From an uncultured Acidobacteriota bacterium (lineage in GTDB: Bacteria > Acidobacteriota > Thermoanaerobaculia > Multivoradales > DATKCC01), in assembly GCA_963741925.1 (NCBI GenBank), contig CAVUJU010000002.1, positions 595,978 to 659,977 on the forward strand: 64,000 bases of DNA. Reading direction: 5' to 3'. The position numbers were made by a program, and so were the translations under genes. Positions 298 through 35,182 of this stretch are shown piece by piece (the stretch's first letter is position 1; each line of letters begins with the position of its first letter). The notes beneath the pieces were generated by a model, which saw nothing but the letters and a program-made list of their open reading frames with translations, was not told the DNA's origin and searched no databases.

Positions 298-3200
298 TCA
301 CTGGCAGAGCCCTCCGCTCTTGCCGCGGGCATCGTGGTGAACGCCTTCACCGCCGCCTCGGTCACCTCCAGAGGTCGAGACCGGTTCGAAGAGGCAAGCG
401 GAGCGAGGCAGTCGAGAAGCCGCTCCAACGTGCGTTTCTGGCGCGGCGTCGCCGGCTTCAGCTTGCAGAGGCCGCCCAACTTCCGTTTCTCGTCCCGGAG
501 ACTGGCCCACTCCGCGAGGTTCGAGTCGGCAAGAGCCAGGAGCCGCGCGTAGCGTCGAAACCCGGTTGCCTCGCAGCGCGGGCAGGGCGTCTCCTTCGAG
601 CTCTCCTGGAGGCTGCGCGCCCACTCGTCGTCAGGGCTCCTCTGCGATTCATCCAGGAGGCGGCGAAAGAGGCCGTCCCAGCGCAGCCAGGAGGACACCT
701 GGGCCGGGTTCGAGCCGCGCTTCTTGAGAAACGAGCCTGGGCCCGGACGCGACCAGAAACCGTAGAGGATCAGTTCGCGGCCTCTGCCGTCGAGGCGTTC
801 GAAGGGGGTGCGGGCCGTCCAGAGACCCTCCCGGGCCATCCGGCTGAGGAACGGCTTGAGCTCGTTGCGGCGGACGCCCTTCATCACGGCATTGGCCTGC
901 GGCGTCAAGAACCCTTCCTCCTCCGGCGCCAACCGTCGATTCGCAACGACCAGCGCCTCGTCTAGCGTTCTGACCGTCCGGCGACCGCCGCACATGAGGC
1001 AGCGACCGGCGGGTTCGAGCCGCGAGAACTGAACCGGCACCGGCGCCATCGGCCCCACCAGGCCTCTCTCGAGGTCGAGTAGACGTTCCGAGCTGGCGGC
1101 GACCAGACGGCCGTGGGCGTCCCGAAGCTCCACGTAGCGGGAGCCGACGGCGAAGGCGTCTCGAAGCACCTCGGCCCTCTCCCTCCGCCCGCCGGTCTTC
1201 GGCACGAGGCGGTCCCCCGTCGCCCGAAGCCTCCGGACATCCAAGCTCGCTTTTCGAGACGCCCACGGCTCGCCCTTCTCGGTCACCAGCCGGAGGCCTT
1301 CCTTCGACAGATGATCCTCGGTGGTCTTGACCACCGATTGGGGGAGGTCCACTCCCCAGACCTGGAGATCCGTCAGGAAGGGATGGATTGCCAGCCATCC
1401 CCCGGGGACGATCTCCCATTCCGCGAGAAGGTCGTCGAACGCTTCGCCAGGCGGCTTGCGCAGGTCGAGCAGGAGCTTGGGGAGCTCAAGGTCCAGTCCG
1501 GCTACCTCCCAGGCCTCGGCGCCCGCCTCGGCTAGCTCGTAGAGGACCACCACGGGTTCAGCGAGGCCGTCTTCGGCCAAGGCCTGGGGAACTCCGTCTC
1601 CTTGGATGAGCGTTCGCAGGAGGGAGCGGGTCCTGGAAACCTGCTCCGGCACGGACAGCTTCTTCCCGCCGACTCGAGGTCGGGAACCGGCCGGCTTCTC
1701 GGGCTTCGGCAACTTGCCGGCGAGAGCGCGCCCTGTCGGCGTCGGAGCCTTCTCGAGCCGGCCAGGGGGACCGGAGAACACGATCTGCCCTCCATTTGGG
1801 CCACTGCCCGGCCCGAACTCGAGGACCCAGTCCGCGGCTCGAATCAAGCTGAGATCGTGCTCGACCATGACGATCGTGTTCGCCCCGTCCTCGAGGAGTC
1901 GCTCGAGCGCGCTGGCGAGGCGCCGAACATCCTCGCGATGAAGCCCGACCGCCGGCTCGTCGAGGAGGTAGATCGTGTGCTTCCCTACCGACCCACTCAG
2001 GTGCATCGCCAGGCGCAGGCGCTGGACTTCACCTCCGCTCAAGCTGTCCAGACGCCGGCCGAGCGCAACGTAGCCGATACCGAGGTCGCACATGCCGCTG
2101 ATCAAGGGCTCGGAGATGCCGAACGTGTCGACCAGGCGGCCGAGCCGATCGACTGGCATCTCGAGGAGCTCTTGCACGTTGGTGCCTGCCACGCGGACCG
2201 ACAGCACCTCATGCGTGTAGCGCGAGCCGCCACAGCGTGGGCAGACGGAGAACCGGCTACCGTCTTCCACCTCCCCCAGGCCGGCGCAGACCGGACACCG
2301 GCCGTTGCCGGCGTTGACACCGAAATCGCTCGGCGACAGTCGTTCCCGACGGGCGGCCGGCGAGGATCCGAAGGTCTTGCGAATGGCGTCGAAGTCGCTT
2401 GAAAAGGTGGCAACGAGACTTCTGCGGTTGGCTGGCGGTGTCGCCTGGTCAAGTGCGACGATCTCCTGAAGGGAGCTTAGCCCGGAGATCGACTTCCAGC
2501 GACCGCGGCGAAGCGAGAATTCCTCAGCGTCGTCCCCCACCTCCTGAAGCAAGGCCGGGGCGAGCACCCCCCTGAGGAAGCTCGACTTGCCTGAGCCGGA
2601 GACGCCACAGATGCAAGTGAGCCGGCCGAGGGGAATCTCACAGTCGACATCCTCCAGGTTGTAGATCGAAGCGCCGCAGACTTCGATCTTCGGATGGTCG
2701 CGGGCGATCTTCGAGGGCTGCCGCAGCCGATCCTCTCCTGAGGGCCGTGGCCAGTTGCGCCGTGGGCCGGCGTAGACGACCTCGCCGCCCTTCGAGGCCG
2801 CGCCAGGCCCTAGCTCGACGAGCCAATCCGCTGCCTCCCAAAGAGTCTCGCGATGCTCGTTGAGAATGACCGTATGGTCGTCGCGCAGCCGGTCGAAGGC
2901 GGCGGCTAGCGGAGCCAGGTCGGACTCGTGGAGCCCCCGGGCCGGTTCGTCGAGAAGCAGGCACAGGCCGCGTTCCCCGGCGTCGAGAACACGCGCGAGT
3001 CGGACTCTACGGCTTTCCCCCTTGCTCACCTCGATCATGCTTCGGTCTCCGGTGAGATAGCCGAGGCCGACCGAGATGAGAGACGAGGCATGCCTGCGGA
3101 GGTGTCGGACAAAAGGGACTCCTTCACGGGGGACAGCCTGTACGAGATCTCCCTGGTCCGCCGTCAGGTCGAGAACCTGGCGGAAGGTCATGGCGAGAAT

Positions 3201-4568
3201 CTCGGCGATGCCGTACCTACCGACACGTAGCGCTCTCGCCTGGAAGGACCAGCGCGTCCCGCCGCAGTAGCTGCACGGCCCGACCTCGACGAAGGCACCC
3301 AGGCGCTCGCCGGCCTTGGTCTTTCCCGCCACCTTCTCGAACACGATCTCTTCGAACCCGGCGAAGGGCCGTGGCCTGCCGATCTTGCGACCGGAGGCGT
3401 CGCGATCGAAGACGGGCTCGTCGCCGCTCCCGCCCAGTACGAGAGCTCGGGCGTCGTCGGAGAGCTTCGACCAGGGGATGTCCGGAGAGAAGCGGTGCAT
3501 GCCCCGCAGGCCTTCGATTGTCTCATGCTGAACATTCACATACTTGTAGTTCTTCTCCGTCCAGATCGCGAATGCGCCGTCTCGCATGGAACGTTCCGGG
3601 CGCGAAACGAGGCTCTCCTCGTCGAGTCGGTAGTCCACGCCTGTCCCATGACAGTTGGTGCAGGCCCCGCTCAGCTCATGATCCGGGGCGTTGAACGAGA
3701 GTAGATGCGGAGATGGCGGCGCGAACACTCCCGGAGTCTCTGGGTGGACCCAATGTTTCGTCGAATCGAGGCGAGCTCCGAAGGGCCCCATGAGGTCCGG
3801 GTTGGACGACTCGGGCAGCATGACGACCACCGAGCCCTTGGAGGCCGCGAAGGCGAGCTCCAACATCTTGCGCAACGCCTTCCTCTGGCCAGGGCCATTG
3901 ACTTCGATCTCCCCGATCGATGCCTCGATGGTGTGCCGCACGTTTGGGTTAAGTGGCTTGAACTCGGTCGTGGGGATCGAGCGGCCAGCCTCACGGATCG
4001 ACGCGGGGTCGGTCTCGCTGCGGACCACAAGCTGCTCGATACCCTTAGATGCCAGCCGCCGAACCGCGATGCGGCCGTCCGTTCGCTCGTTCCGGATGGG
4101 AGTGGCCCAGACCTCGGCGGTGCCCCGGTAGTGTTTGGCAATCCAGCGGGAGTATGTCTCCGCCGAGGGCGGTGGCACCTCGGCTCGGGCGCGCTCGGAG
4201 TACGGCTTGGAGGCGAGGACGAATAGCCGGCGAAGCACCGACAGGAAACCCGTGGCCGTGCCGACGGTTGTCCTGACGCTCGGCTGGAAGCCGCGCTGCC
4301 CTACCAGGACTGTCGGCGGCATCCTGCCGACAAAGGCCCGCACGTCGTCGCGTTCGAGGTCATCCTGCGTGGCTCCCAGGAACAGGCGGGTCCGGCGTGC
4401 TCCCTCGGCCGCCAGCGTGTCCGCAAGAAGGGAGCTCTTCCCTGATCCGGAGACTCCCGTAACGACAGAGATTCTTCCCAACGGGAAGGCGACATCGACG
4501 TTCTTCAGGTTGTTGGCGTCGCCACCGACGACTTCGATCGCTTCCGAGCTGCGAGGACGTGCCGTCAC
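294..4568 (-). CDS. UvrA-like double ABC ATPase (~975 aa core) fused to a ~450-aa C-terminal extension of unknown function
   Basis: N-terminus IEVVGGDANNLKNVDVAFPLGRISVVTGVSGSGKSSLL and second module IEVCGASIYNLEDVDCEIPLGRLTCICGVSGSGKSS match both UvrA ABC modules. It also has two LSGGE signatures, Walker B LLDEP, and zinc-finger Cys pairs (CTNCHGTG, CPVCAGLG..CPRCGGSRY). The track ORF 294..4649 is one continuous frame. The likely true start is GTG at 4568, overlapping the upstream stop (GTGA). Confidence 0.75.
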   Translation of the reverse strand: MTARPRSSEAIEVVGGDANNLKNVDVAFPLGRISVVTGVSGSGKSSLLADTLAAEGARRTRLFLGATQDDLERDDVRAFVGRMPPTVLVGQRGFQPSVRTTVGTATGFLSVLRRLFVLASKPYSERARAEVPPPSAETYSRWIAKHYRGTAEVWATPIRNERTDGRIAVRRLASKGIEQLVVRSETDPASIREAGRSIPTTEFKPLNPNVRHTIEASIGEIEVNGPGQRKALRKMLELAFAASKGSVVVMLPESSNPDLMGPFGARLDSTKHWVHPETPGVFAPPSPHLLSFNAPDHELSGACTNCHGTGVDYRLDEESLVSRPERSMRDGAFAIWTEKNYKYVNVQHETIEGLRGMHRFSPDIPWSKLSDDARALVLGGSGDEPVFDRDASGRKIGRPRPFAGFEEIVFEKVAGKTKAGERLGAFVEVGPCSYCGGTRWSFQARALRVGRYGIAEILAMTFRQVLDLTADQGDLVQAVPREGVPFVRHLRRHASSLISVGLGYLTGDRSMIEVSKGESRRVRLARVLDAGERGLCLLLDEPARGLHESDLAPLAAAFDRLRDDHTVILNEHRETLWEAADWLVELGPGAASKGGEVVYAGPRRNWPRPSGEDRLRQPSKIARDHPKIEVCGASIYNLEDVDCEIPLGRLTCICGVSGSGKSSFLRGVLAPALLQEVGDDAEEFSLRRGRWKSISGLSSLQEIVALDQATPPANRRSLVATFSSDFDAIRKTFGSSPAARRERLSPSDFGVNAGNGRCPVCAGLGEVEDGSRFSVCPRCGGSRYTHEVLSVRVAGTNVQELLEMPVDRLGRLVDTFGISEPLISGMCDLGIGYVALGRRLDSLSGGEVQRLRLAMHLSGSVGKHTIYLLDEPAVGLHREDVRRLASALERLLEDGANTIVMVEHDLSLIRAADWVLEFGPGSGPNGGQIVFSGPPGRLEKAPTPTGRALAGKLPKPEKPAGSRPRVGGKKLSVPEQVSRTRSLLRTLIQGDGVPQALAEDGLAEPVVVLYELAEAGAEAWEVAGLDLELPKLLLDLRKPPGEAFDDLLAEWEIVPGGWLAIHPFLTDLQVWGVDLPQSVVKTTEDHLSKEGLRLVTEKGEPWASRKASLDVRRLRATGDRLVPKTGGRRERAEVLRDAFAVGSRYVELRDAHGRLVAASSERLLDLERGLVGPMAPVPVQFSRLEPAGRCLMCGGRRTVRTLDEALVVANRRLAPEEEGFLTPQANAVMKGVRRNELKPFLSRMAREGLWTARTPFERLDGRGRELILYGFWSRPGPGSFLKKRGSNPAQVSSWLRWDGLFRRLLDESQRSPDDEWARSLQESSKETPCPRCEATGFRRYARLLALADSNLAEWASLRDEKRKLGGLCKLKPATPRQKRTLERLLDCLAPLASSNRSRPLEVTEAAVKAFTTMPAARAEGSASE

Positions 4569-5443
4569 GCCACAGGTTCCCCGAGGTGAAGGACGAGGAC
4601 GGACCGGGAGTCGAACTCGGTGGGAAATCGCGTGAACCGCACCGAGCAAGCGCCTCGGTAATGGAGTGCGGTGCGGTTCGACATGAGCACCGTATCGCCT
4701 GGGCGGGTGTGGAAAGGGACCGAGACATCCAGCGCAGCCCGGTGGATCGTGTCGATCATCGTCTCGAGGCCAGGTAGCGGAGCGTTAAGACGCTTGCAGG
4801 CGACGCGGAGGCTCGCTGGGTGATAGCGGATCGTCCGCTCGTTCACGAGCCGCCCTTGCCAGATCGCGGACGAGTGCTCTTGGGCCAAAGTGATCTCGGA
4901 TTCGGTCAGGAACGTCAGCGTGGCAACGTCTGCGGGGGCATCTCTCCTCAGCCGCGCGAGCAAGTCGGGCAGGAAGGCGACCCTCTGCTCCGCATACTCG
5001 GGGCCCCCCGGGTCTTCGATTTCGCATTGGAGCGCCGTGCAGCAGGGCGGCCTCGCAGAGACATTCGCATCAGTGTGGAACTCGCCAGCTTGCGTAGTAT
5101 GTGAAAGCTCCTTCGTCCATGGCGACATTCGGAAGCGCTTGACGATCCGGCCCGGGGGATAGGTCTCGAAAGAAGCGCCGAGCGCGCAGCTCGCAAGGAG
5201 CAGGGATCGCCCCCCATCCACCTGGAGGCTCCGGACCACGGCGTAGCCGCAATCGGCGATCGTTGTGCGTACGTGCTCGGAGAAGCCCTTCCAAGACTCC
5301 AAACGCTGGATGCGTGCCGCTAGGTGGCCTCCAAGTGCCTCTCGCTCTGCCTCCTCTAGGCAGTCGAAGCGCCCTGCCAGGTGGCAAATCTCGCACCTCA
5401 GATCCGCGCTGACCTGAATCTCAGGAAGTAGCCGCGCGGACAT
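4565..5443 (-). CDS. TauD/TfdA-family Fe(II)/2-oxoglutarate dioxygenase
   Basis: 292 aa with an HxD...H facial triad context (GEFHTDAN ... TALHYRG) typical of the TauD family. GC is lower and codons atypical (CTA, TTG, GCA). Confidence 0.55.
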   Translation of the reverse strand: MSARLLPEIQVSADLRCEICHLAGRFDCLEEAEREALGGHLAARIQRLESWKGFSEHVRTTIADCGYAVVRSLQVDGGRSLLLASCALGASFETYPPGRIVKRFRMSPWTKELSHTTQAGEFHTDANVSARPPCCTALQCEIEDPGGPEYAEQRVAFLPDLLARLRRDAPADVATLTFLTESEITLAQEHSSAIWQGRLVNERTIRYHPASLRVACKRLNAPLPGLETMIDTIHRAALDVSVPFHTRPGDTVLMSNRTALHYRGACSVRFTRFPTEFDSRSVLVLHLGEPVA

Positions 5444-6146
5444 CGGCCACCTGGAGACGGAAGATCAGTTTCTGCCGGTAGTGGTGCTCGAGCATGGTTC
5501 GCACGTCCGGGTAAGTGAACTCGGCGTTGAGCGGATCGTAGGTCACCCACCCCGATCGGCGCAGAGGTTGCACCGAAGGCAGAAGTCCCGCCTCAGACGC
5601 AGCCCTCATCACATCCAGCGGAGCGTGATCGTAGACCTGGTGGCCGGCGGCGACCAAGGTCTTTCTCCACTCCTGCCACAGTGGGTTCTCGGCGTGGGCA
5701 CCCAGCACGACATAGGCGACACCGCTTGGAGCCAAGACCCTGCGAATCCGCCCCATCGCCTCTCGAAGATCGTGCTCGAGGTACAGCTCCTCGTGGCTCG
5801 TAACTAGATCCACGACACCGTCGGGAATCTGGCCCCAGTCGCAGGAGTCGAGAAGCCTGACTCGCGCCGAGAGAGACGCGAGGCGTCGGCTGGCGCGACT
5901 GCGGGCGTCGCCCAGCGGCTCGACTCCGAAGATCTGGACCGGGCGAAAGCGGCGGGCCAGAGCCTCGAGAAGGCCTCCAGTATGGCAGCCGATGTCCAGG
6001 ATCACTCGCGGTTCAGCTTGGGAGTCCGTTTCGACATGCCTGATCACAGACGCCCAGAATGCCTCGTTGGCCCGAGGCAAGCCTTCATCGAGCGCAGGGT
6101 CGCCGAAGAAGGTCCGAGGTTCCGAGCCGGCGGCCTTCAAGGGCAT
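5421..6146 (-). CDS. class I SAM-dependent methyltransferase
   Basis: Motif I VILDIGCHTGGLLEALA. Internal start MPLKAAG at 6146 overlaps the upstream gene's stop (ATGCCCTTGA). Its stop overlaps the dioxygenase start. Confidence 0.6.
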   Translation of the reverse strand: MPLKAAGSEPRTFFGDPALDEGLPRANEAFWASVIRHVETDSQAEPRVILDIGCHTGGLLEALARRFRPVQIFGVEPLGDARSRASRRLASLSARVRLLDSCDWGQIPDGVVDLVTSHEELYLEHDLREAMGRIRRVLAPSGVAYVVLGAHAENPLWQEWRKTLVAAGHQVYDHAPLDVMRAASEAGLLPSVQPLRRSGWVTYDPLNAEFTYPDVRTMLEHHYRQKLIFRLQVADVRAATS

Positions 6147-6622
6147 CGCTGGGAGGAACAGCCTCGCGCCCTGGTGTCGCCGGCAGTGGGATCGATTCCG
6201 AAGTGGAGGATGAACTTCTCGACGGAGGCGCGAAAAGTGCGCTCCAATGCGGCTTCGTCCTCTGGGCCCCGCATCCCGAAATACGGGAAGTGATGAAGGA
6301 ACTCGCCGAAGACCTCGTCGCAATCGCGCGCATAGGCACGTGTATCGAGAATATGAGCGTGCCAGAAGGTGTCGATCGGCCCGGTGGGGCAGACCTTCTC
6401 GTCGCGATATCGGGCTGCTAGAGCGAGGAACTTTCTGTAGAGATCCTCGACCTCGTCGCAGAACTCGGGCGCCCAGCCTTTCTCCTCGTTCAATTTCCTC
6501 TTGAGCAGGCCGAAATCGAGCTTATCGACGCGATCGAGCGCCTGCTGGAGGGCCTCGTCGATGCCGACCATCGCCTGCGCGGCCTCGTAGGAGATCGGGC
6601 CATCTTGGTTGAACTCAGGCAT
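6137..6622 (-). CDS. DUF1399-like (glycine-rich-domain-protein-like) protein, possible metal-binding HxH/HH motifs
   Basis: 161 aa from ATG 6622, preceded by GGAGGAGG about 12 nt upstream. The motif CPTGPIDTFWHAHILDTRAYARDC resembles the DUF1399 signature. Confidence 0.4.
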   Translation of the reverse strand: MPEFNQDGPISYEAAQAMVGIDEALQQALDRVDKLDFGLLKRKLNEEKGWAPEFCDEVEDLYRKFLALAARYRDEKVCPTGPIDTFWHAHILDTRAYARDCDEVFGEFLHHFPYFGMRGPEDEAALERTFRASVEKFILHFGIDPTAGDTRARGCSSQRCP

Positions 6623-18053: not shown

Positions 18054-19332
18054 CGGCCGGCCCGCTCCAGCGCGCCGGAGGCGCTCGCCGCCGCGCCCAC
18101 CGTCCCGGCGATCTCGGCCACCCCCGCGACCAGGCGGTCCACCTCCTCGCGGGTCGTGTAGAGGGAGATCCCGGCGCGCAGCACGCCGCCCCGCTCGGCC
18201 AGGCCCAGGGCCTCGATCGGCCGGGGGGCGTAGAAGTCGCCGTCCCAGACCAGGACCCCGCGCTCTCCCAGCCGCCGGGCCGCATCGAGGGGCGTCACGC
18301 CGTCGATCGTGATCGAGACCGTCGGCGCTCTCCTCCCGGCACCGAACCCCGGCCCGTGGACGGTGACGCCCCGGATCCGCCCGACCCGGCCGGCGTAGTC
18401 GCGGGCCAGGCCGTGCTCGTACTCCGAGATGGCCGCTACGCTCGAGACGATCCGGGCGCGGAGCGACTCCCCCTCGCCCCAGGACGCGAGGTACTCCACC
18501 GCCGCGGCCACGCCGCAGAGCGCCGCGTGGTTCAGGGTGCCGGTCTCGATCCGGTACGGGGCCTCGGCGTCGTGGACGCGGAGGCGGTCGCAGGCGAGCT
18601 CCTCGAGGAACCCCGGCCGGGTGTACAGGATGCCGACGTGAGGGCCGTAGAACTTGTAGGCCGAGCACAGGAGGAAGTCCGGGGCGAGCGCCGCCACGTC
18701 GAGGGGGAAGTGGGGCGCGTAGTGGACCGCGTCGACTACGAGCCGGGCGCCCACCGACCGGCAGAGGTCGGCGACGGGGGCGAGGTCGGTGACCGTGCCC
18801 AGGGCGTTCGAGGCGAGGCCGGCCGCCACCAGCCGGGTGCGCGGGCCGACGCTCGCGGCGAAGCCTTCGGGATCGAGCGTGCCGTCGGGCCGGAGCGCCA
18901 CCTCGCGCACCGCGACACCCCGCTCCTCGAGCCCGAGCCACGGGCCCCGGTTGGCCTCGTGGTCGAGCGCGGTGACCACCACCTCGTCGCCCTGCGCCAT
19001 CCGCCGGCCCAGGGCGTGGGCCAGGGAGTACGCGAGGCTGGTCATGTTCTGGCCGAAGGAGATCTCTCGCCAGGAAGGCGCCCCGAGGAAGGCGGCCATG
19101 GCCCGGCGGGCCTCGAGGATCCGCTCGTCGGACTCCCGGGAGGTCGCGAACTGGCCATGGGTGTTGGCGTTCGAGCGCCGGTAGTAGCCCGAGACCGCCT
19201 CGATCACCGCGGTCGGCACCTGCGTGCCGGCGGGGCCGTCGAGGAAGGCCAGGGGGCGTCCGGCGAGGGTGCGGGAGAGCGCCGGGAAGTCCTCCCGGGC
19301 GCGGAGCGCGTCGCGTTCGGTGAAGGCCATGA
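18050..19332 (-). CDS. class V aminotransferase, cysteine desulfurase (SufS/CsdA-like) family
   Basis: Starts MAFTERDALRAREDFPAL and carries the PLP-lysine context SAYKFYGPHVGILY. The real start ATG at 19332 lies downstream of the repeat-encoded N-terminal extension. Confidence 0.75.
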
Positions 19333-19337
19333 CGGGC

Positions 19338-19344
19338 GATTGTA
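19338..19344 (-). promoter_or_regulatory. -10-like GGTACAATCG upstream of the desulfurase-family gene
   Basis: ggTACAATcgcccgtc ATG, with no SD in between. Confidence 0.35.
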
Positions 19345-19430
19345 CCGATCGGATCGCCCCCTCACCCTCGGTCCCTCTCCTCCCCGTGAGGGTGAGGAGA
19401 GGGTCGGGGTGAGGAGGGGTGGTCTGAGGC
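19338..19430. repeat. copy of dispersed C/G-rich palindromic repeat family
   Basis: ggatcgccccctcaccctcggtccctctcctccccgtgagggtgaggagagggtcggggtgaggagg sits immediately upstream of the desulfurase start. Confidence 0.7.
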
Positions 19431-28917: not shown

Positions 28918-30255
28918 ATGAGAATCCGGTCCTTCGACGAGCTCATGCCCCTGCCGGAGCACCTCGCCGTCGAGCGGCACTTCGACGGCATCAACTGGCT
29001 GCGGGCCCGGTGGCTCTTCGCCGGCTACCTGGTCGCCTGCCTCGTGACGCTGGCGGTCTTCCTCTCCGCGCGAGACGTCCCGCGCGCCTGGGTCTCGATC
29101 GCGGACCTGGCGCTCCTCGCGGCCCTCTTCCTCACCCGCAACGGCGCCTGGGCCGAGGGCGGTTTCCGGCCCCTCCTGATCGCGCTCCTCGTCGTCCAGC
29201 TCGTGGTGACCGGGCTCTGGGCGAGCGAGCTGGCCCTCGTCCTGGTGTTCGCGGCCGGCGTCTTCCCGGCGCTCCTGGTCGTGCTGCGCTTCCGGACCGG
29301 CGACCTGGCGCTCCTCGCCGGTTGCTTCGTCGCGGTGGCGGCGGGGTGGGAGATCCTCCAGGGAGTCTCCTTCGCCACGGTGCTGCGCCACGCGGCGGCC
29401 GTCGCCGTGCCCAACGGCCTGGCCGCCTTCGCCGGCGCTCGCCTGACCCGCGCCGCGCGCTCCGAGTTCCTCGACCGCTGGCGCCGGGCGGTGAGCCGGG
29501 AGCGCGACCGCCAGCGGATGCGCGGCGAGCTCGCCGATGCCCGGAAGATCCAGCTCAGCATGCTGCCGGCCGGCGACCCGGTCCGCGACTGGATCGAGGT
29601 GTCGGGGGCCTGCATCCCGGCGGCGGAGGTGGGCGGCGACTACTACGACTACATCTCCCTGGGCGAGGACGCCTTGGCCATCGTGGTGGCCGACGTCGCG
29701 GGCCACGGGGTGGCGAGCGGCCTGCTGATCGCGGGGCTCCGGAGCTCGCTCTACGTGCTCCAGGACGAGCTCTTCTCCCCCGCCGGGGTGCTCGAGAAGC
29801 TGAACCTCATGGTGCGCGCCTCGGTGCGCGCCCGGACCTTCGTCACCGTGACCATCGCCGTCGTCGAGCGCGCCACGAGCCGCCTGCGGGTGGCGAGCGC
29901 CGGCCATCCGCCGGTCTTCCTGCGGCGCGGAGACGGCTCGGTGGCGGAGCTCGGGGCGCCGGCCCCGCCGCTCGGCACCCGCCTGCCGAGCCGCTACTCC
30001 GAGGAGAGCGCGCTCCTCGAGCCGGGCGACCTGTTCCTGCTCTACACCGACGGGCTGGTCGAGGCCATCGACTTCCGGGAGGACTGCTACGGCTTCGAGC
30101 GCCTGCGCCAGGCCCTCTCCCGCTCCGCCGCCGGCGGCCCGGCCCGCGACGTCCGCAACGACCTGCTGGACGACATCTCCCGCTTCAAGGGCCAGGCCCT
30201 CCAGACCGACGACCTGAGCCTGGTCGTCGGCCGGTGGCGGGCGACGGCGGGGTGA
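28918..30255 (+). CDS. membrane-anchored PP2C/SpoIIE-type serine phosphatase
   Basis: Multiple N-terminal TM helices. The PP2C catalytic motifs are GGDYYDY, VADVAGHG and LYTDGLVEA. Confidence 0.8.
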   Translation: MRIRSFDELMPLPEHLAVERHFDGINWLRARWLFAGYLVACLVTLAVFLSARDVPRAWVSIADLALLAALFLTRNGAWAEGGFRPLLIALLVVQLVVTGLWASELALVLVFAAGVFPALLVVLRFRTGDLALLAGCFVAVAAGWEILQGVSFATVLRHAAAVAVPNGLAAFAGARLTRAARSEFLDRWRRAVSRERDRQRMRGELADARKIQLSMLPAGDPVRDWIEVSGACIPAAEVGGDYYDYISLGEDALAIVVADVAGHGVASGLLIAGLRSSLYVLQDELFSPAGVLEKLNLMVRASVRARTFVTVTIAVVERATSRLRVASAGHPPVFLRRGDGSVAELGAPAPPLGTRLPSRYSEESALLEPGDLFLLYTDGLVEAIDFREDCYGFERLRQALSRSAAGGPARDVRNDLLDDISRFKGQALQTDDLSLVVGRWRATAG

Positions 30256-30330: not shown

Positions 30331-31035
30331 TCACGAGCAGTCGGTCAGAAGCCGGCCCGCGCCTTCGAGGACAGCCTGCGGGGTCGTCAGCGACAGTCCT
30401 TCGAAGCACCGTCGCTGGAAGGTGGGGTCGCCGAGGAGGGCCTCGATGGCCTTCTGGAGGTCACGGCGAACCGGCGCGCCGTAGGCGGCCTCGGCCTTGG
30501 ACCAGGCTTCGTCCGGGATCGGGCCGACCTGGGTACGGAGCAGCGCGAGGTCGATCAGGTCGCGGGCCAGGAGCTGGCGGTCGGGCCAGCGATCGGAGTT
30601 GGCGAGGAGCTTCTCGGCGTACGCATCGGCCACGGTGAGGCACACCACAGGGGACCACGCGGGGCGCGACCCGGCGTCGAGCGCGATACGTCCCTCGTGG
30701 ATGATCTCGAACTTGATCGGCAAGCCGTCGAGGACCAGGGGAAACCGGATCCCATACTGATCGGTCCGGACCTCCCGCGGAAGCCCGAAGCCTTCGGGAA
30801 GATGTTTGTCTCGGAAGAGTCCCTCGGCCCCTCGTTGTCGGGCGAGACTTCTCAGCTCGGCGAAGGCGGGCGCGTCGGAGCTCAGGAAGTCGATGTCCTG
30901 GGAGATGCGGTACTCGCCGAGCTCGAGGACGAGCCGGGTGCCGCCTCCGAAAAGCGTGTGGTGCGTCGCCAGGAGGTCGGCGTCGAGCGCCTCGAGAACC
31001 CGCAGGACCGCCCGATGCTCCTCACGCCGGAACAT
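30331..31035 (-). CDS. AbiEii/AbiGii-family (DUF1814) nucleotidyltransferase toxin-like protein
   Basis: Starts MFRREEHRAVLRVLEALDADLLATHHTLFGGGTRLVLELGEYRISQDIDFL (GGT..L...R.S.DIDF). The start overlaps the upstream gene by 11 nt. Confidence 0.6.
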   Translation of the reverse strand: MFRREEHRAVLRVLEALDADLLATHHTLFGGGTRLVLELGEYRISQDIDFLSSDAPAFAELRSLARQRGAEGLFRDKHLPEGFGLPREVRTDQYGIRFPLVLDGLPIKFEIIHEGRIALDAGSRPAWSPVVCLTVADAYAEKLLANSDRWPDRQLLARDLIDLALLRTQVGPIPDEAWSKAEAAYGAPVRRDLQKAIEALLGDPTFQRRCFEGLSLTTPQAVLEGAGRLLTDCS

Positions 31036-31276
31036 CGATCGTGCTGCCGTAGTCTGCGACGAGGCGGCGGATGAAGCGCCACTCCTCGGGGCTCGGTTCG
31101 GCGAGGACGTGGAGGTGGCGCCAGCCGGATTCGTAGCGCCGGAGCATGTCGAGGGGCGAGAGGGACCTGTAGTCGCGGTCGAACCAGGAGATGCTGGCGA
31201 GGAACGGGAGGTCGCCCGGAGGCTTGAGATCCGCCTCGTCTCGAGGGTCACGCCGGGGCTCTGCCGTCCTCTCCAT
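31022..31276 (-). CDS. 84-aa hypothetical protein, translationally coupled to the AbiEii-like gene (candidate antitoxin)
   Basis: MERTAEPRRD...LSPLDMLRRYESGWRHLHVL... with ATG at 31276. GTACAATCG lies 8 nt upstream. Confidence 0.4.
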   Translation of the reverse strand: MERTAEPRRDPRDEADLKPPGDLPFLASISWFDRDYRSLSPLDMLRRYESGWRHLHVLAEPSPEEWRFIRRLVADYGSTIDVPA

Positions 31277-31286
31277 GGTGAGTCCG

Positions 31287-31293
31287 ATTGTAC
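31287..31293 (-). promoter_or_regulatory. -10-like GTACAATCG upstream of the 84-aa gene
   Basis: cgaagTACAATcggactcacc ATG. Confidence 0.35.
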
Positions 31294-31326
31294 TTCGGGC
31301 CCGAGAGTCGGCTCGATCCTTCCCTC

Positions 31327-31743
31327 CTACGGCTCGTTCTCAATGCCGTCCGCCTGCACGACCCGCCGGATCAGGCGTTCCTCGATGGGGCGCCGCATGA
31401 TGAGGACGTCCTCGCGTCGGCCCGGGAGAGTCGCCGTGAAACGGTACCGACGGGAAGGGTCTCGATCCACCACCAGGCATCCGTGCTTGAGGACCTGGAA
31501 GGCGAGGATCGGCGAGGCCTGGTCCAGATCGACAAGGTCCACGGCGCGGCCCAGGAGCGCCTCGGCGTCGGCCCGGAGGTCGGCGAGCTTCGCCGCCGAC
31601 AGCCGCTTGCGCGCCAGCACCGCGACGTCGAGATCCGAGTCGGAGCGGGCACGACCCGCGGCCACGGACCCGTAGACCCACAAGCAGTCCACGCCGAGGC
31701 GCTGGTCGAGGAGGTCGAGCAGCTCGCGGGGAAAGGCGTCCAT
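31327..31743 (-). CDS. MNT-type nucleotidyltransferase domain protein
   Basis: LWVYGSVAAGRARSDSDLDVAVL. Start MDAFPREL at 31743 with GTACAATCG directly upstream. Confidence 0.6.
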   Translation of the reverse strand: MDAFPRELLDLLDQRLGVDCLWVYGSVAAGRARSDSDLDVAVLARKRLSAAKLADLRADAEALLGRAVDLVDLDQASPILAFQVLKHGCLVVDRDPSRRYRFTATLPGRREDVLIMRRPIEERLIRRVVQADGIENEP

Positions 31744-31751
31744 GGCGAGTC

Positions 31752-31758
31752 GATTGTA
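31752..31758 (-). promoter_or_regulatory. -10-like TACAATC (context GTACAATCG) 8-9 nt upstream of ATG; candidate leaderless promoter
   Basis: The same 9-mer context recurs at 31287-31293 and 19338-19344. GCTACAATC at 22112-22118 and GCTACATAT at 61914-61920 sit upstream of other minus-strand gene starts. Confidence 0.35.
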
Positions 31759-31879
31759 CTTCCAGCACCCGCCGGGGTTTTCCCCCGCCCGGGCTCCCCT
31801 GCTTCGGCGCACTCTTCGAGCGCGCCGTCGGTCGGAACGACCAGGAGAGAGGAGGACGACGCGCGGAGCGCGATCGGCC

Positions 31880-32562
31880 TCAGCTCGCCGGCGGGGCCGG
31901 CTGGGCGGCCTTCTGCTTGGCGGCGCCGACCAGGTCGAAGGCCTCGCGGCGCATCTTGGCGCGCTGGACGTCCTCTTCGGGGAAGCTGGGGCGGTAGCCC
32001 AGGCGGTCCTCGTCGAAGGTGAAGGGCTTCATCAGGTCCACCTTGCCGACGATCGACTGCTCGCGCGTGAAGTAGGCCATGTCGTAGTTGTTCGACATGA
32101 TGATCGCCTCCTCCGGACAGGCGTCCACGCAGTAGCCGCAGAAGACGCAGCGCAGCATGTCGATCTCGTAGACCTCGGGGAACTTCTCGATGTTCTCGTC
32201 CGGCTGCTCGCCGGCCTCGATGTGGATGCACTCGGCCGGGCAGTTGGTGGCGCACAGGAAGCAGGCCACGCAGCGCACCGACCCGTCGGGCCGCGTGGTG
32301 AGAATGTGGTGGCCGCGGTAGCGGTGCGAGTACTGGCGCCGCTCCTCCGGGTAGTTGATCGTGTACTCGGGGCCGTGGAACAGATTCCGGAAGAAGTGGC
32401 GCAGGGTCACCATCATGCCGGCCACGAGCGGCAGGTAGAGCCGCTCGCCGAGGCTCGGCCGGTAGGGCTCGACCTCGGTCGGATGGTAAACCGGGGGCGG
32501 CAGCGGACGGCCGGAAGCGCCGCCTTGCGGGTGGGCGTGGAGCGGCGGCGAGGGTTGGCTCA
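31880..32562 (-). CDS. nuoI: NADH-quinone oxidoreductase subunit I (2x[4Fe-4S])
   Basis: CVACFLCATNCP and CVFCGYCVDACP motifs. Start MSQPSPP overlaps the nuoCD stop. Confidence 0.85.
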
Positions 32563-34266
32563 TCGTTCGAGCTCTCCGGCGATGACGTTCAGCCCGCCGA
32601 GGGTCACGATGACGTCGGAGACGCTCGCGCCCTCGATCAGGTCGGAGAAGGTGGAGAAGATCGGGAAGCAGGGCGGCCGGACCTTGATCCGGTAGGGGTG
32701 CGACGAGCCGTCCGAGACGATGTAGAAGCCGAGCTCGCCGTTCGCCCCCTCGACCATGTCGTAGCGCTCGCCGGGCGGCACCTGGATGCCGTCCATGATC
32801 AGCTTGAAGTGGTAGATCATGGACTCCATCTGGTTGTAGCACGCCTCCTTCGGCGGCAGCGCCACGTGCGGATCGGAGACGATGTGCCCGCCCTCCGGGA
32901 TGCCCCGGTCGAGGAGCTGGCGGATGATCGAGAGGCTCTGGCGGATCTCGGCGTTTCGCACCCGGTAGCGGTCGTAGACGTCGCCGCCGTGGTAGACCGG
33001 CACCTCCCACTCGACGGTGTCGTAGAGGTCGTAGGGGGCGGCCTTGCGCACGTCGTAGCCCACGCCCGAGGCCCTGAGGCAGGGGCCCGTCCAGCCCCAG
33101 TTGACCGCGTCCTCGGCCGAGATCGCCGCCGTGCCCACCGCGCGCTTCTGCCAGATGCCGTTCTTGTCGACCAGCTTCTCCACGTCGTCGATGAAGGGCG
33201 GGATGATCTCGAGCAGCTTGCGAGCCCGCGCCATGAAGTCGGGCGGCAGGTCCTGGGCGAGGCCGCCGATCCGGCCGTAGGAGACCGTCAGGCGCGCCCC
33301 GGAGCAGGCCTCGAGCAGGCCGTAGATCTCCTCGCGCGGCTGGAAGTAGTACCAGAAGTTGGTCAGGGCTCCGGCGTCGACCAGGGTCGAGCCGTTGCAC
33401 ACGCAGTGGTCCATGATCCGCGAGAGCTCGGAGAGGATCGTGCGCGCCCAGACCGCCTTGGGCGGCGGCTCGATGCCGAGCATCTTCTCTACCGTCCGGC
33501 AGTAGCCGACGTTGTTGATGAACGAGGAGCAGTAGTTCAGGCGGTCGGTGTACGGGATGACGTGCTGCCAGGTGTGCGTTTCGCACATCTTCTCGAAGCA
33601 GCGGTGGAGGTAGCCGATCTCGACCTCGCTCGCGACGATCGTCTCGCCGTCGAGCTCGGCCACCACCCGGAAGGTGCCGTGCATCGCCGGGTGCGAGGGG
33701 CCGATGTTGATGGTCATCCGCTCGAACATGTCGTCGGCGACGCCCTCGGGCACCTTGAGCTTCGGGCGGTAGATCTTGTCCTCGGTCAAGATCCAGCGCC
33801 GGGTGGCGTCGTAGTCCTTCCTCAGCGGATGCCCCTGGAAGGCGTCGTGGGTGAGGATGCGGCGCAGGTTCGGGTGGCCCTCGAAGCGGAAGCCGAACAT
33901 GTCGTAGGCCTCGCGCTCGAACCAGTCCGCCGCCTTCCAGACCGGGATCAACGAGGGCAGCGTCGGGTCGGCCTCGGTGAGGGGCACCTTGAGGCGGAGG
34001 CGCTCGTTCCTGGGCAGCGAGTAGAGGTGGTAGACCGCCTCGAAGCGTTCCTCGCGGTCCGGGTAGTCGACGCCGCAGACGTCGAGGAGCATGTCGAGCT
34101 GGGTCGAGGGGTCGTCGCGCAGGTCGCGCGCGAGCTCGGCCAGCACGTCCCGGCTCACCACCCAGGTCGGCTGGTCCCTGATCTCATCAGGGCCCTCCTG
34201 GGGCAGGATGCTCCCGGCCGGGTACTTGTCGAGCAGAGACGGCGTCTCGATCGCCGTGGGACTCAT
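32560..34266 (-). CDS. nuoCD: NADH-quinone oxidoreductase fused subunits C/D
   Basis: 568 aa. The NuoC part has PNLRRILT..., and the NuoD part has INIGPSHPAMHGTFRV. There are no NiFe Cys motifs. Confidence 0.9.
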   Translation of the reverse strand: MSPTAIETPSLLDKYPAGSILPQEGPDEIRDQPTWVVSRDVLAELARDLRDDPSTQLDMLLDVCGVDYPDREERFEAVYHLYSLPRNERLRLKVPLTEADPTLPSLIPVWKAADWFEREAYDMFGFRFEGHPNLRRILTHDAFQGHPLRKDYDATRRWILTEDKIYRPKLKVPEGVADDMFERMTINIGPSHPAMHGTFRVVAELDGETIVASEVEIGYLHRCFEKMCETHTWQHVIPYTDRLNYCSSFINNVGYCRTVEKMLGIEPPPKAVWARTILSELSRIMDHCVCNGSTLVDAGALTNFWYYFQPREEIYGLLEACSGARLTVSYGRIGGLAQDLPPDFMARARKLLEIIPPFIDDVEKLVDKNGIWQKRAVGTAAISAEDAVNWGWTGPCLRASGVGYDVRKAAPYDLYDTVEWEVPVYHGGDVYDRYRVRNAEIRQSLSIIRQLLDRGIPEGGHIVSDPHVALPPKEACYNQMESMIYHFKLIMDGIQVPPGERYDMVEGANGELGFYIVSDGSSHPYRIKVRPPCFPIFSTFSDLIEGASVSDVIVTLGGLNVIAGELER

Positions 34267-34279
34267 CGGATCACCCTCC

Positions 34280-34610
34280 TCATCCTCGTTCCCTCTCCCG
34301 CTCGCGTCCTACAAACTTGACTCATCTGTCCAGATCTCGGTGGGCCTGGTGGGCTAACGAGGCTCCGCCTCAGACCACAAAGCGGCAAAAGCATCCGAGG
34401 CTTCGTGACCGGTAGCTCCCCCGCCCACGCCGACTGGTTGAGCCTAGCTTCGCCCAAACGGCTACTCCAGAACGTTGGATCCATCGGATCGCCCCCCTCT
34501 CCCTCGATCCCTCTCCCACCCTCCGGGGGGAGAGGGACGCCCCCTCCCGCTCGCGTCCTACAAACTTGACTCATCTGTCCAGATCTCGGTGGGCCTGGTG
34601 GACGAGCATG
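34280..34610. repeat. composite copy of dispersed repeat family (with internal ~55-bp direct duplication) between nuoB and nuoCD
   Basis: The core ggatcgcccccctctccctcgatccctctcccaccctccggggggagagggacgccccctccc and flanks are ~85% identical to 43395-43578. The 3' module ...cgtcctacaaacttgactcatctgtccagatctcggtgggcctggtgg occurs twice (34296-34350, 34546-34602). Confidence 0.8.
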
Positions 34611-34621
34611 GTCCATTCGGT

Positions 34622-35182
34622 TCAGCCGGCGGCGGCCGCCGGCTCCTCCTGGACGCGGGTCTGGGACTCTCGGGCGTACCGCTTGCGGTCCCGGACCACC
34701 TTCTCCTTGAGCTGCAGGATGCCGTACATCAGCCCTTCCGGGTTCGGCGGGCAGCCGGGGACGTAGACGTCGACCGGGATGATCTCGTCGATGCCCTGCA
34801 TCACGTGGTAGGCGCGATAGAACCCGCCGGAGCACGCGCAGGCGCCCATCGAGACCACCCACTTGGGTTCGGCCATCTGGTCGTAGATCTTCTTGAGCAC
34901 CGGCGCCATCTTGTCGTTGATCGTGCCGGCGACGATCAGCAGGTCGCTCTGACGCGGCGAGAAGCGCACCACCTCGGAGCCGAAGCGAGCCATGTCGTAG
35001 TGGCTCGAGACGGTCGACATGAACTCGATGGCGCAGCAGGCGGTGCCGAACGGGAAGGGCCAGAAGGAGTGGCGCTGGGCCCAGTCCTCCACCTTGTCGA
35101 AGGTGGTGGTCAACCAGCTCTCGCCGGTGTGGGCGACCGGGCCGCCGCGGGTCTCTTCCTGGTCCAGGACTTTGAGGCTCAT
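34622..35182 (-). CDS. nuoB: NADH-quinone oxidoreductase subunit B
   Basis: CCAIEF...GACACSGG...VPGCPP motifs for cluster N2. Confidence 0.9.

Follow-up and report, generated by a model that had tools for sequence, protein, structure and literature searches.

A 64,000-nucleotide stretch of the genome of an uncultured Acidobacteriota bacterium (contig CAVUJU010000002.1, positions 595,978 to 659,977; hereafter the window) was found to carry, at 30331-31276 on the minus strand, two overlapping genes that probably form a self-contained toxin-antitoxin module of the AbiE/MenAT type. In this module, a protein of 84 amino acids (aa) would be the neutralising partner of an AbiEii-family nucleotidyltransferase (NTase), and the MNT-type nucleotidyltransferase gene immediately upstream would be a leftover, an orphan mntA.

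The predicted toxin is encoded by an open reading frame (ORF) of 234 aa at 30331-31035, the predicted short antitoxin by its partner ORF of 84 aa at 31022-31276, and the MNT protein of 138 aa by mntA at 31327-31743, all on the minus strand. As read from the sequence, the first two share 14 nucleotides (nt), ATGTTCCGGCGTGA (31022-31035, minus strand), in which the stop codon of the small gene (31022-31024) falls within the 5' end of the toxin gene, whose ATG occupies 31033-31035. This overlap indicated translational coupling, and the overlapping two-gene arrangement was seen in related loci too. A gap of 50 nt separates the MNT stop from the start of the 84-aa gene. Because homologues were found for each of the three proteins (120 for the 84-aa protein, 960 for the toxin and 35 for MNT), the ORFs could be taken as real genes and not chance ORFs. 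A sequence-only reading had already described three ORFs here, with the 84-aa gene coupled to an AbiEii-family gene and an MNT-type gene beside them; the coordinates and the coupling were borne out by the sequence, and both family identities by Pfam and NCBIfam matches.

The predicted toxin and its short partner

The toxin matched the Pfam AbiEii family (PF08843) at 1.9e-19, with 71 bits against a cutoff of 22.5, and the PADLOC AbiEii model PDLC02298 at 3e-70 over residues 1-218; its 960 homologues carry the annotation "nucleotidyl transferase AbiEii/AbiGii toxin family protein". Its motifs were G30-G32, R43-x-S45-x-D47-x-D49, E110/E114 and K142-LLANSDR149. By the published definitions (G-G/S; D-x-D with a family-specific Arg; an acidic third motif; a C-terminal Lys; PMC3985639), it has all the conserved pol-beta NTase motifs of the AbiE family. 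In an alignment of 31 sequences (A2), residues F29, G31, T33, R34, R43, S45, D49, E114, K142, N146, D148 and R149, among others, were invariant, and D47 and E110 nearly so. The AlphaFold2 model reached a predicted local distance difference test score of 95.8 and a predicted template modelling score of 0.90, and its best Foldseek matches in the PDB were the DUF1814-like JHP933 (E = 2e-6) and TglT/MenT3 (Rv1045; E = 6e-5), each with a probability of 1.0. PDB sequence searches with the toxin, with the A2 profile and with the profile of the small-protein alignment (A1) gave no relevant match, neither MenT nor AbiEii, because the subfamily profiles were too narrow; only the fold comparison tied the toxin to MenT3 and JHP933. 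As judged from its sequence and predicted model, the toxin gene is not degraded.

The 84-aa protein had no match in Pfam or NCBIfam at E<=1, including the AbiEi_1/3/4 and helix-turn-helix (HTH) models, which agreed with the earlier remark that it has no obvious HTH. PADLOC-DB, by contrast with Pfam and NCBIfam, which hold no model for the short partner, contains two short "AbiEi" models of 72 and 66 positions. PDLC02281 matched the 84-aa protein at E = 1.3e-13 over residues 19-81, and the second model matched it at 3e-06; plasmid and viral relatives matched the sister model, PDLC02278, at 1e-20 to 1e-30. The homology search returned 120 clusters of 59-96 aa with 57-100% identity to the 84-aa protein, whose named sources were Thermoanaerobaculia and whose named entries were all "hypothetical". 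A profile search of 1.84 billion representatives gave 145 clusters, mostly of 60-130 aa; two long matches with multiple stretches in this search (P0249 and P0335) were repeat proteins and were rejected as false positives. The conserved core of about 62-65 aa, roughly residues 20-82, follows a variable N-terminal part of some 19 residues. In alignment A1 this core had 16 invariant positions and the consensus LPFLxSISWFDRxYRxLxPLDMLRRYExGWRxLxVLxxPSPEEWxFIRxLVxxYGSxxDV. The predicted model was helical, of moderate confidence. Members of the family occur in Acidobacteriota, Myxococcota, Cyanobacteria, Actinomycetota and on plasmids of enterobacteria, among them an IncX7 plasmid of E. coli. RefSeq labels them "hypothetical protein" and no description of the family was found in the literature; catalogued by PADLOC, it yet appears to be unstudied.

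The profile searches proposed in the sequence-only reading thus recovered a conserved family, and the concern raised there that the 84-aa ORF might not be conserved did not materialise. Its suggestion of a "minimal or novel antitoxin" held for minimal, as the protein belongs to a conserved, HTH-less partner family; strict novelty could not be upheld, given the short PADLOC models and the precedent of MenA1.

Pairing of the two genes was followed in two sets of loci. The first was seeded with the small protein and comprised 55 loci, 53 of them assessable, from Acidobacteriota, Myxococcota (including Sorangium) and one cyanobacterium. A full-length toxin lay directly downstream and overlapped the small gene in 38 of the 53; it was truncated or frameshifted in seven and missing in eight. 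The second set was seeded with the toxin and comprised 80 metagenome loci, of which 77 could be assessed. The small domain lay directly upstream of the toxin in 75 of these, as a small gene recognised by hidden Markov model (HMM) in 71 and as a divergent copy of the domain in four more (L135, L136, L137 and L139). PDLC02278 matched L135 at 3e-22 and L136 at 3e-24; the domains of L137 and L139 were called by eye from their likeness to L136. The exceptions were L126, with no small gene within 125 nt upstream of the toxin, and L104 (positions 1-300, compared with L030 at 3830-4290), in which the small domain has been deleted in frame, so that the promoter and the first 15 codons of the small gene join an otherwise full-length AbiEii. 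A small gene without an intact toxin (15/53) was therefore more frequent than a toxin without the small domain (2/77; Fisher p = 2e-5), in two samples of loci drawn from different collections. That the small gene outlives the toxin more often is the pattern expected if the small protein is the antitoxin.

Some of the lone small genes occupy a conserved chromosomal site. In four Thermoanaerobaculia loci (L022, L026, L035 and L039), the small gene stands alone, resembling an orphan antitoxin. A conserved gene of about 130-138 aa lies upstream of it in L022, L026 and L035. Downstream is a conserved gene of 135 aa (152 aa in L026); in L022, L035 and L039 this gene follows the small gene directly, in the place of the toxin.

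Proposed mechanism and competing explanations

The DUF1814 toxins MenT1, MenT3 and MenT4 extend the acceptor ends of tRNA (PMC7450476, PMC10435456, PMC11375011), and a preprint on AbiEii of Streptococcus agalactiae describes a translation block (bioRxiv 10.64898/2026.01.19.700257). By analogy with these enzymes, the window toxin would add nucleotides to the 3' acceptor ends of tRNAs and so stop translation. MenA1, an antitoxin of 68 aa that lacks an HTH, spans two MenT1 molecules when bound and causes MenT1 to be phosphorylated at T39, two residues before the catalytic D41; MenA3 likewise induces phosphorylation of MenT3 (R76/S78/D82) at S78 (PMC10435456, PMC11375011). AbiEi induces phosphorylation of AbiEii at T65 (bioRxiv 10.64898/2026.01.19.700257). 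The spacing of R43-x-S45-x-D47-x-D49 in the window toxin equals that of R76/S78/D82 in MenT3 and T39/D41 in MenT1. A similar mechanism in the window pair would have the 84-aa protein neutralise the toxin by direct binding near this loop and possibly also induce its autophosphorylation, with Ser45 as the predicted acceptor. The 84-aa protein is the free form of the conserved domain of about 65 aa, with no DNA-binding part, and as it has no HTH it is probably not autoregulating, as reported for MenA1.

Transcription of the pair probably runs from a promoter of its own, made up of a -10 element only, and would yield a leaderless or near-leaderless bicistronic mRNA with a predicted start at about 31276-31280. 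A -10-like box, TACAAT, at 31287-31292 (minus strand) precedes the small-gene ATG by 10 nt and is the predicted promoter; another, at 31753-31758 (minus strand) and 9 nt upstream of the mntA ATG, would be the native mntA promoter. No Shine-Dalgarno sequence stands between TACAAT and ATG in either gene. Among 110 non-redundant loci of the family, 87 have a TANNNT box that precedes an in-frame start by 5-10 nt (mode 6-7); shuffled sequences would give 2.4. Scans for canonical -35/-10 promoters and for terminators around the locus found nothing, and repeat searches there revealed no operator-like inverted repeat.

The string GAAGTACAATCG(G)ACTC(A/G)CCATGGA precedes both mntA and the small gene. 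It was considered as the scar of an insertion or duplication, or as a common operator, and rejected as either, because the mntA copy is native (GGAAGTACAATCGA..CGCCATGG also stands upstream of mntA in the syntenic locus L148), the small-gene copy is like that of the closest relative (L001) and the core recurs at 19337. This third GTACAATCG, followed by 8 nt and ATG, was found at 19337-19345 (GGTACAATCGCCCGTCATGG; window 19330-19345, minus strand), the other two copies being at 31285-31293 and 31751-31759. Its recurrence suggests that -10-proximal starts of the leaderless type are common in the host organism.

Relatives of the small domain occur in three architectures. In its free form, as a "hypothetical protein" of 67-68 aa, it is encoded on plasmids from Xanthomonas citri, from E. 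coli (a conjugative IncX7 plasmid, with the pair WP_032736819.1 and WP_050296629.1) and from Proteus, and free copies are present on eight IMG/VR viral contigs too; the pairing described by PADLOC recurs in plasmid, viral and metagenome relatives. In a second form it is the C-terminal part of a fusion with an XRE-type HTH, as in L135 (HTH_31, 1.5e-9) and in a 164-aa "helix-turn-helix transcriptional regulator" of a Rhodococcus plasmid. In a third it shares one polypeptide with the NTase, joined to the enzyme's N-terminus by a linker of about 0-3 aa, as in the product of a gene of 317 aa on pANA01 of Anabaena sp. 90 (WP_015081607.1) and in at least seven representative clusters of about 310-330 aa with PF08843 (including P0292 and P0298). 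A one-base frame change at the 14-nt overlap would likewise join the small protein and the toxin of the window. The HTH fusions indicated that the domain is directed at the toxin and is not itself the DNA-binding part, and the NTase fusions speak for a direct physical contact between domain and toxin. With free, HTH-fused and toxin-fused forms at hand, the family is convenient for studying how DUF1814 toxins are controlled by unrelated antitoxins, a question currently being worked out for MenAT and AbiE. On the Xanthomonas citri plasmid (L153, 2564-3627), there is a second AbiEii-family gene some 350 nt past the first pair; the hypothetical protein of 101 aa encoded before it is unrelated, has no match to the small-domain HMM and is possibly another type of short partner.

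Several points weigh against a simple two-gene module in which the 84-aa protein neutralises the toxin. The near-linkerless fusions sit badly with an inhibitor that must be present, and the in-frame deletion in L104, which leaves an apparently intact toxin without an antitoxin in cis, fits such a model poorly. The equivalence of Ser45 with S78 of MenT3 was drawn from motif spacing and not from a residue-level structural alignment, and the leaderless promoter was read solely from conservation, the consensus scan being empty. Toxicity, neutralisation, tRNA modification and phosphorylation are predictions for this pair, and the mode of neutralisation was taken from analogy alone, as comparison of the small protein with MenA1, with AbiEi and with all solved structures detected no similarity in sequence or fold.

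The tethered forms and L104 may leave room for a role as a switch or sensor. As a sensor, the small domain would be a regulatory module that keeps the NTase off until a trigger arrives, such as a phage protein, acting in cis in the fusions and in trans here, much as in defence proteins that fuse toxin and antitoxin. The recurrence of natural fusions with linkers of about 0-3 aa, in the representative clusters and in a RefSeq plasmid gene, is in keeping with such a role, as are the homologous pairs in viral sequence (eight IMG/VR contigs) and, near other defence-like genes, on plasmids that are conjugative or mobilisable, and the listing of the pair by PADLOC under the defence system AbiE. However, an ordinary antitoxin explains the gene order, the overlap and the asymmetry of decay equally well, and the sensor role extends the two-gene explanation more than it replaces it; we consider it improbable. 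A related and bolder idea, unlikely though not far-fetched, is that the domain of about 65 aa is a structurally new antitoxin or switch module used free, tethered to an XRE-type HTH or tethered to the enzyme. An enzyme-tethered domain could not be a simple stoichiometric inhibitor and would therefore imply trigger-released control, for example by phage sensing, a mode undescribed for AbiE or MenAT.

The 84-aa protein could also be a truncated canonical AbiEi (COG5340), reduced to the antitoxic C-terminal domain by loss of the winged HTH (wHTH). PADLOC names both of its short models "AbiEi", and canonical AbiEi has two parts, of which the C-terminal domain does the neutralising (PMC10435456). 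A Foldseek search of the small-protein model against the whole PDB gave nothing below E = 7, and no structural match to AbiEi or MenA4, negatives that are limited by the moderate confidence of the model; the A1 profile, searched against all PDB chain sequences at E<=10, returned no MenA1 chain. By these sequence and model comparisons, the 84-aa protein has no detectable relationship to MenA1, AbiEi or MenA4, and descent from a truncated AbiEi appears quite unlikely. A canonical AbiEi encoded elsewhere beside the locus, which had been named earlier as a finding that would count against a short antitoxin, was not present; the flanking genes are nuoI (31880-32563, minus strand, upstream of mntA) and a gene for a SpoIIE-type phosphatase (28918-30255, plus strand, beyond AbiEii).

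Decay of the pair into a non-functional remnant was judged very improbable. Loss or truncation of the toxin in 15 of the 53 related loci and the degraded HepT-MntA module next door in the same genome would be compatible with it. However, both window ORFs have the full length of their families, every residue that is invariant in A1 or A2 is there (which follows from how the invariant lists were built), the overlap and promoter context are kept, and the identical pair was assembled in two further independent sequencing runs (L056 and L057). The sequence-only reading had allowed for a "degraded TA locus"; this does not apply to the AbiE-like pair, with its full-length genes and intact catalytic motifs, and applies to MNT, an MntA without HepT.

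An orphan mntA at a toxin-antitoxin hotspot

The MNT protein matched Pfam Polbeta at 7.4e-18 and the NCBIfam model MntA_antitoxin (NF047752, "MntA family adenylyltransferase antitoxin") at 8.2e-25, with 86.8 bits against a cutoff of 60, and its translation has an intact GSx10DxD motif (G25-S26...D37-L-D39). Its close homologues are followed by hepT. In the syntenic L148, the order is nuoB-nuoCD-nuoI-mntA-hepT-transposase, with an MntA 89% identical to that of the window, and three further MntA homologues (63-82% identity) have an overlapping HepT-like gene next to them, so that all four close homologues inspected (63-89% identity) are paired in this way. A search of the 64-kb window by tblastn with four HepT partners found nothing credible (best E 0.014).

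A pairwise DNA alignment (A3) of the window with L148 indicated where the two part. Coming from upstream of mntA (nuoI-mntA), they are about 92% identical until some 30 nt short of the window mntA stop, where the identity collapses; the approximate recombination junction was placed at 31350-31362, in the 3' end of mntA. Past this point comes hepT in L148, and in the window the AbiE-like pair with its promoter. The MntA C-termini after the shared ...ERLI(R/Q)RV accordingly read VQADGIENEP* in the window and MGRAAGG* in L148. On this comparative sequence evidence, MNT is the MntA antitoxin of a HepT-MntA type VII module, orphaned when the AbiE-like cassette replaced hepT, and it stands outside the AbiE-like module. 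The base composition of the cassette showed no anomaly in its content of guanine and cytosine. The ratio of nonsynonymous to synonymous substitution rates between the window and L148 mntA was 0.23, and mntA may still be useful to the cell, for example against a HepT encoded elsewhere.

The site itself appears to accept different cargo. In the syntenic L058, nuoD and nuoI are followed by a small gene (74% identical) 35 nt past the nuoI stop and then by AbiEii, with no MNT between them. With mntA-hepT in L148 and an AbiE-like pair in L058 and the window, the site downstream of nuoI can be regarded as a toxin-antitoxin hotspot, at which an AbiE-like cassette with its own promoter would have replaced hepT and left mntA orphaned. 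By tblastn at E<=0.1, MNT was absent from all 145 other related loci and was found only in L056 and L057, contigs with the identical locus.

MNT, the 84-aa gene and AbiEii had been presented as a three-gene cluster whose conservation should be checked, and a three-component system, for instance one in which MntA modifies or regulates the toxin or the small protein, could draw on the common strand, the 50-nt gap and the similar -10 and start contexts; it is already largely refuted by the comparative data and has next to no probability left, as the triad is not kept in the 145 related loci or in L058, the closest MNT homologues are all paired with HepT, a recombination junction lies in the mntA 3' end, and the promoter-like string is native to the lineage of each gene (mntA in L148, the small gene in L001) with a third core copy at 19337-19345. 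In annotation, MNT should be labelled an orphan MntA and not a member of a triad.

Further observations were made at this hotspot and its surroundings. The HepT of L148 (3461-3913) reads RNVAVDEY where its homologues read RN(V/I)AVHEY, has an aberrant C-terminus and lies beside a Transposase_29 gene (4014-6413); it appears to be decaying. Downstream of the AbiE-like pair of L058, at 2847-3524, there are a FitA-like ribbon-helix-helix gene and an HTH_3 gene, more cargo of a toxin-antitoxin-like kind. The nuo genes of the window (31880-35182, minus strand) are nuoB, a fused nuoCD of 568 aa (Complex1_30kDa and 49kDa) and then nuoI, with no nuoE, nuoF, nuoG or nuoH between them, and L148 and L058 have the same order. 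A direct repeat of 62 nt, 98% identical, occurs at 34291-34352 and 34540-34601, and a second of 45 nt, 82% identical, at 34255-34299 and 34473-34517. These repeats (34255-34601) occupy the region of the nuoCD-nuoB gap and reach into the 5' end of nuoCD; a regulatory segment that was duplicated and a small repeat element are both conceivable.

Comparison with known systems

HepT-MntA type VII describes only the neighbour of the pair. The window MNT scores above the MntA cutoff, keeps GSx10DxD and has homologues with an overlapping hepT; however, it is followed by no hepT and its 3' end is recombined, which makes it an orphan antitoxin and not a system. MosAT of SXT was considered as a characterised member of the short-partner subtype and thought unlikely to be one: MosT is a DUF1814 protein, but MosA is placed in COG5340 by Dy et al.

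With canonical AbiEi-AbiEii of Streptococcus agalactiae, MenA3-MenT3 and MenA4-MenT4 (COG5340-COG2253), the window pair shares the PF08843 toxin and its motifs, including the arginine of the D-x-D motif, and an overlapping bicistronic operon in which the antitoxin comes first. The difference lies in the antitoxin. The canonical one is about 200-300 aa long, with an N-terminal wHTH that autoregulates the operon, whereas the window partner has 84 aa, no HTH and no likeness to AbiEi models or structures. Lacking the COG5340 two-domain wHTH antitoxin, the window pair is not a canonical AbiE system.

An architectural analogy is offered by MenA1-MenT1 (Rv0078B-Rv0078A) of Mycobacterium tuberculosis, where, as in the window, a toxin of the DUF1814 superfamily follows a very short helical antitoxin without a DNA-binding domain. 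MenT1 T39-x-D41 and window S45-x-D47 both place a Ser or Thr two residues ahead of the first catalytic Asp. The likeness is one of architecture only: homology between MenA1 and the 84-aa family was not detectable, MenT1 was outside the top 50 Foldseek matches of the window toxin, which was nearest to JHP933 and MenT3, and MenT1 is assigned to COG4849, not COG2253.

The AbiE subtype of PADLOC with a short partner (PDLC02281/PDLC02278 with PDLC02298), for which no published functional study was found, is the window pair's own family. The 84-aa "hypothetical protein" can thus be annotated as the short cognate partner of a toxin of the AbiEii family. The matches of both window proteins to the models of the subtype cover almost their whole length, the two genes are adjacent on one strand and in an identical order, and no difference from the subtype was detectable.

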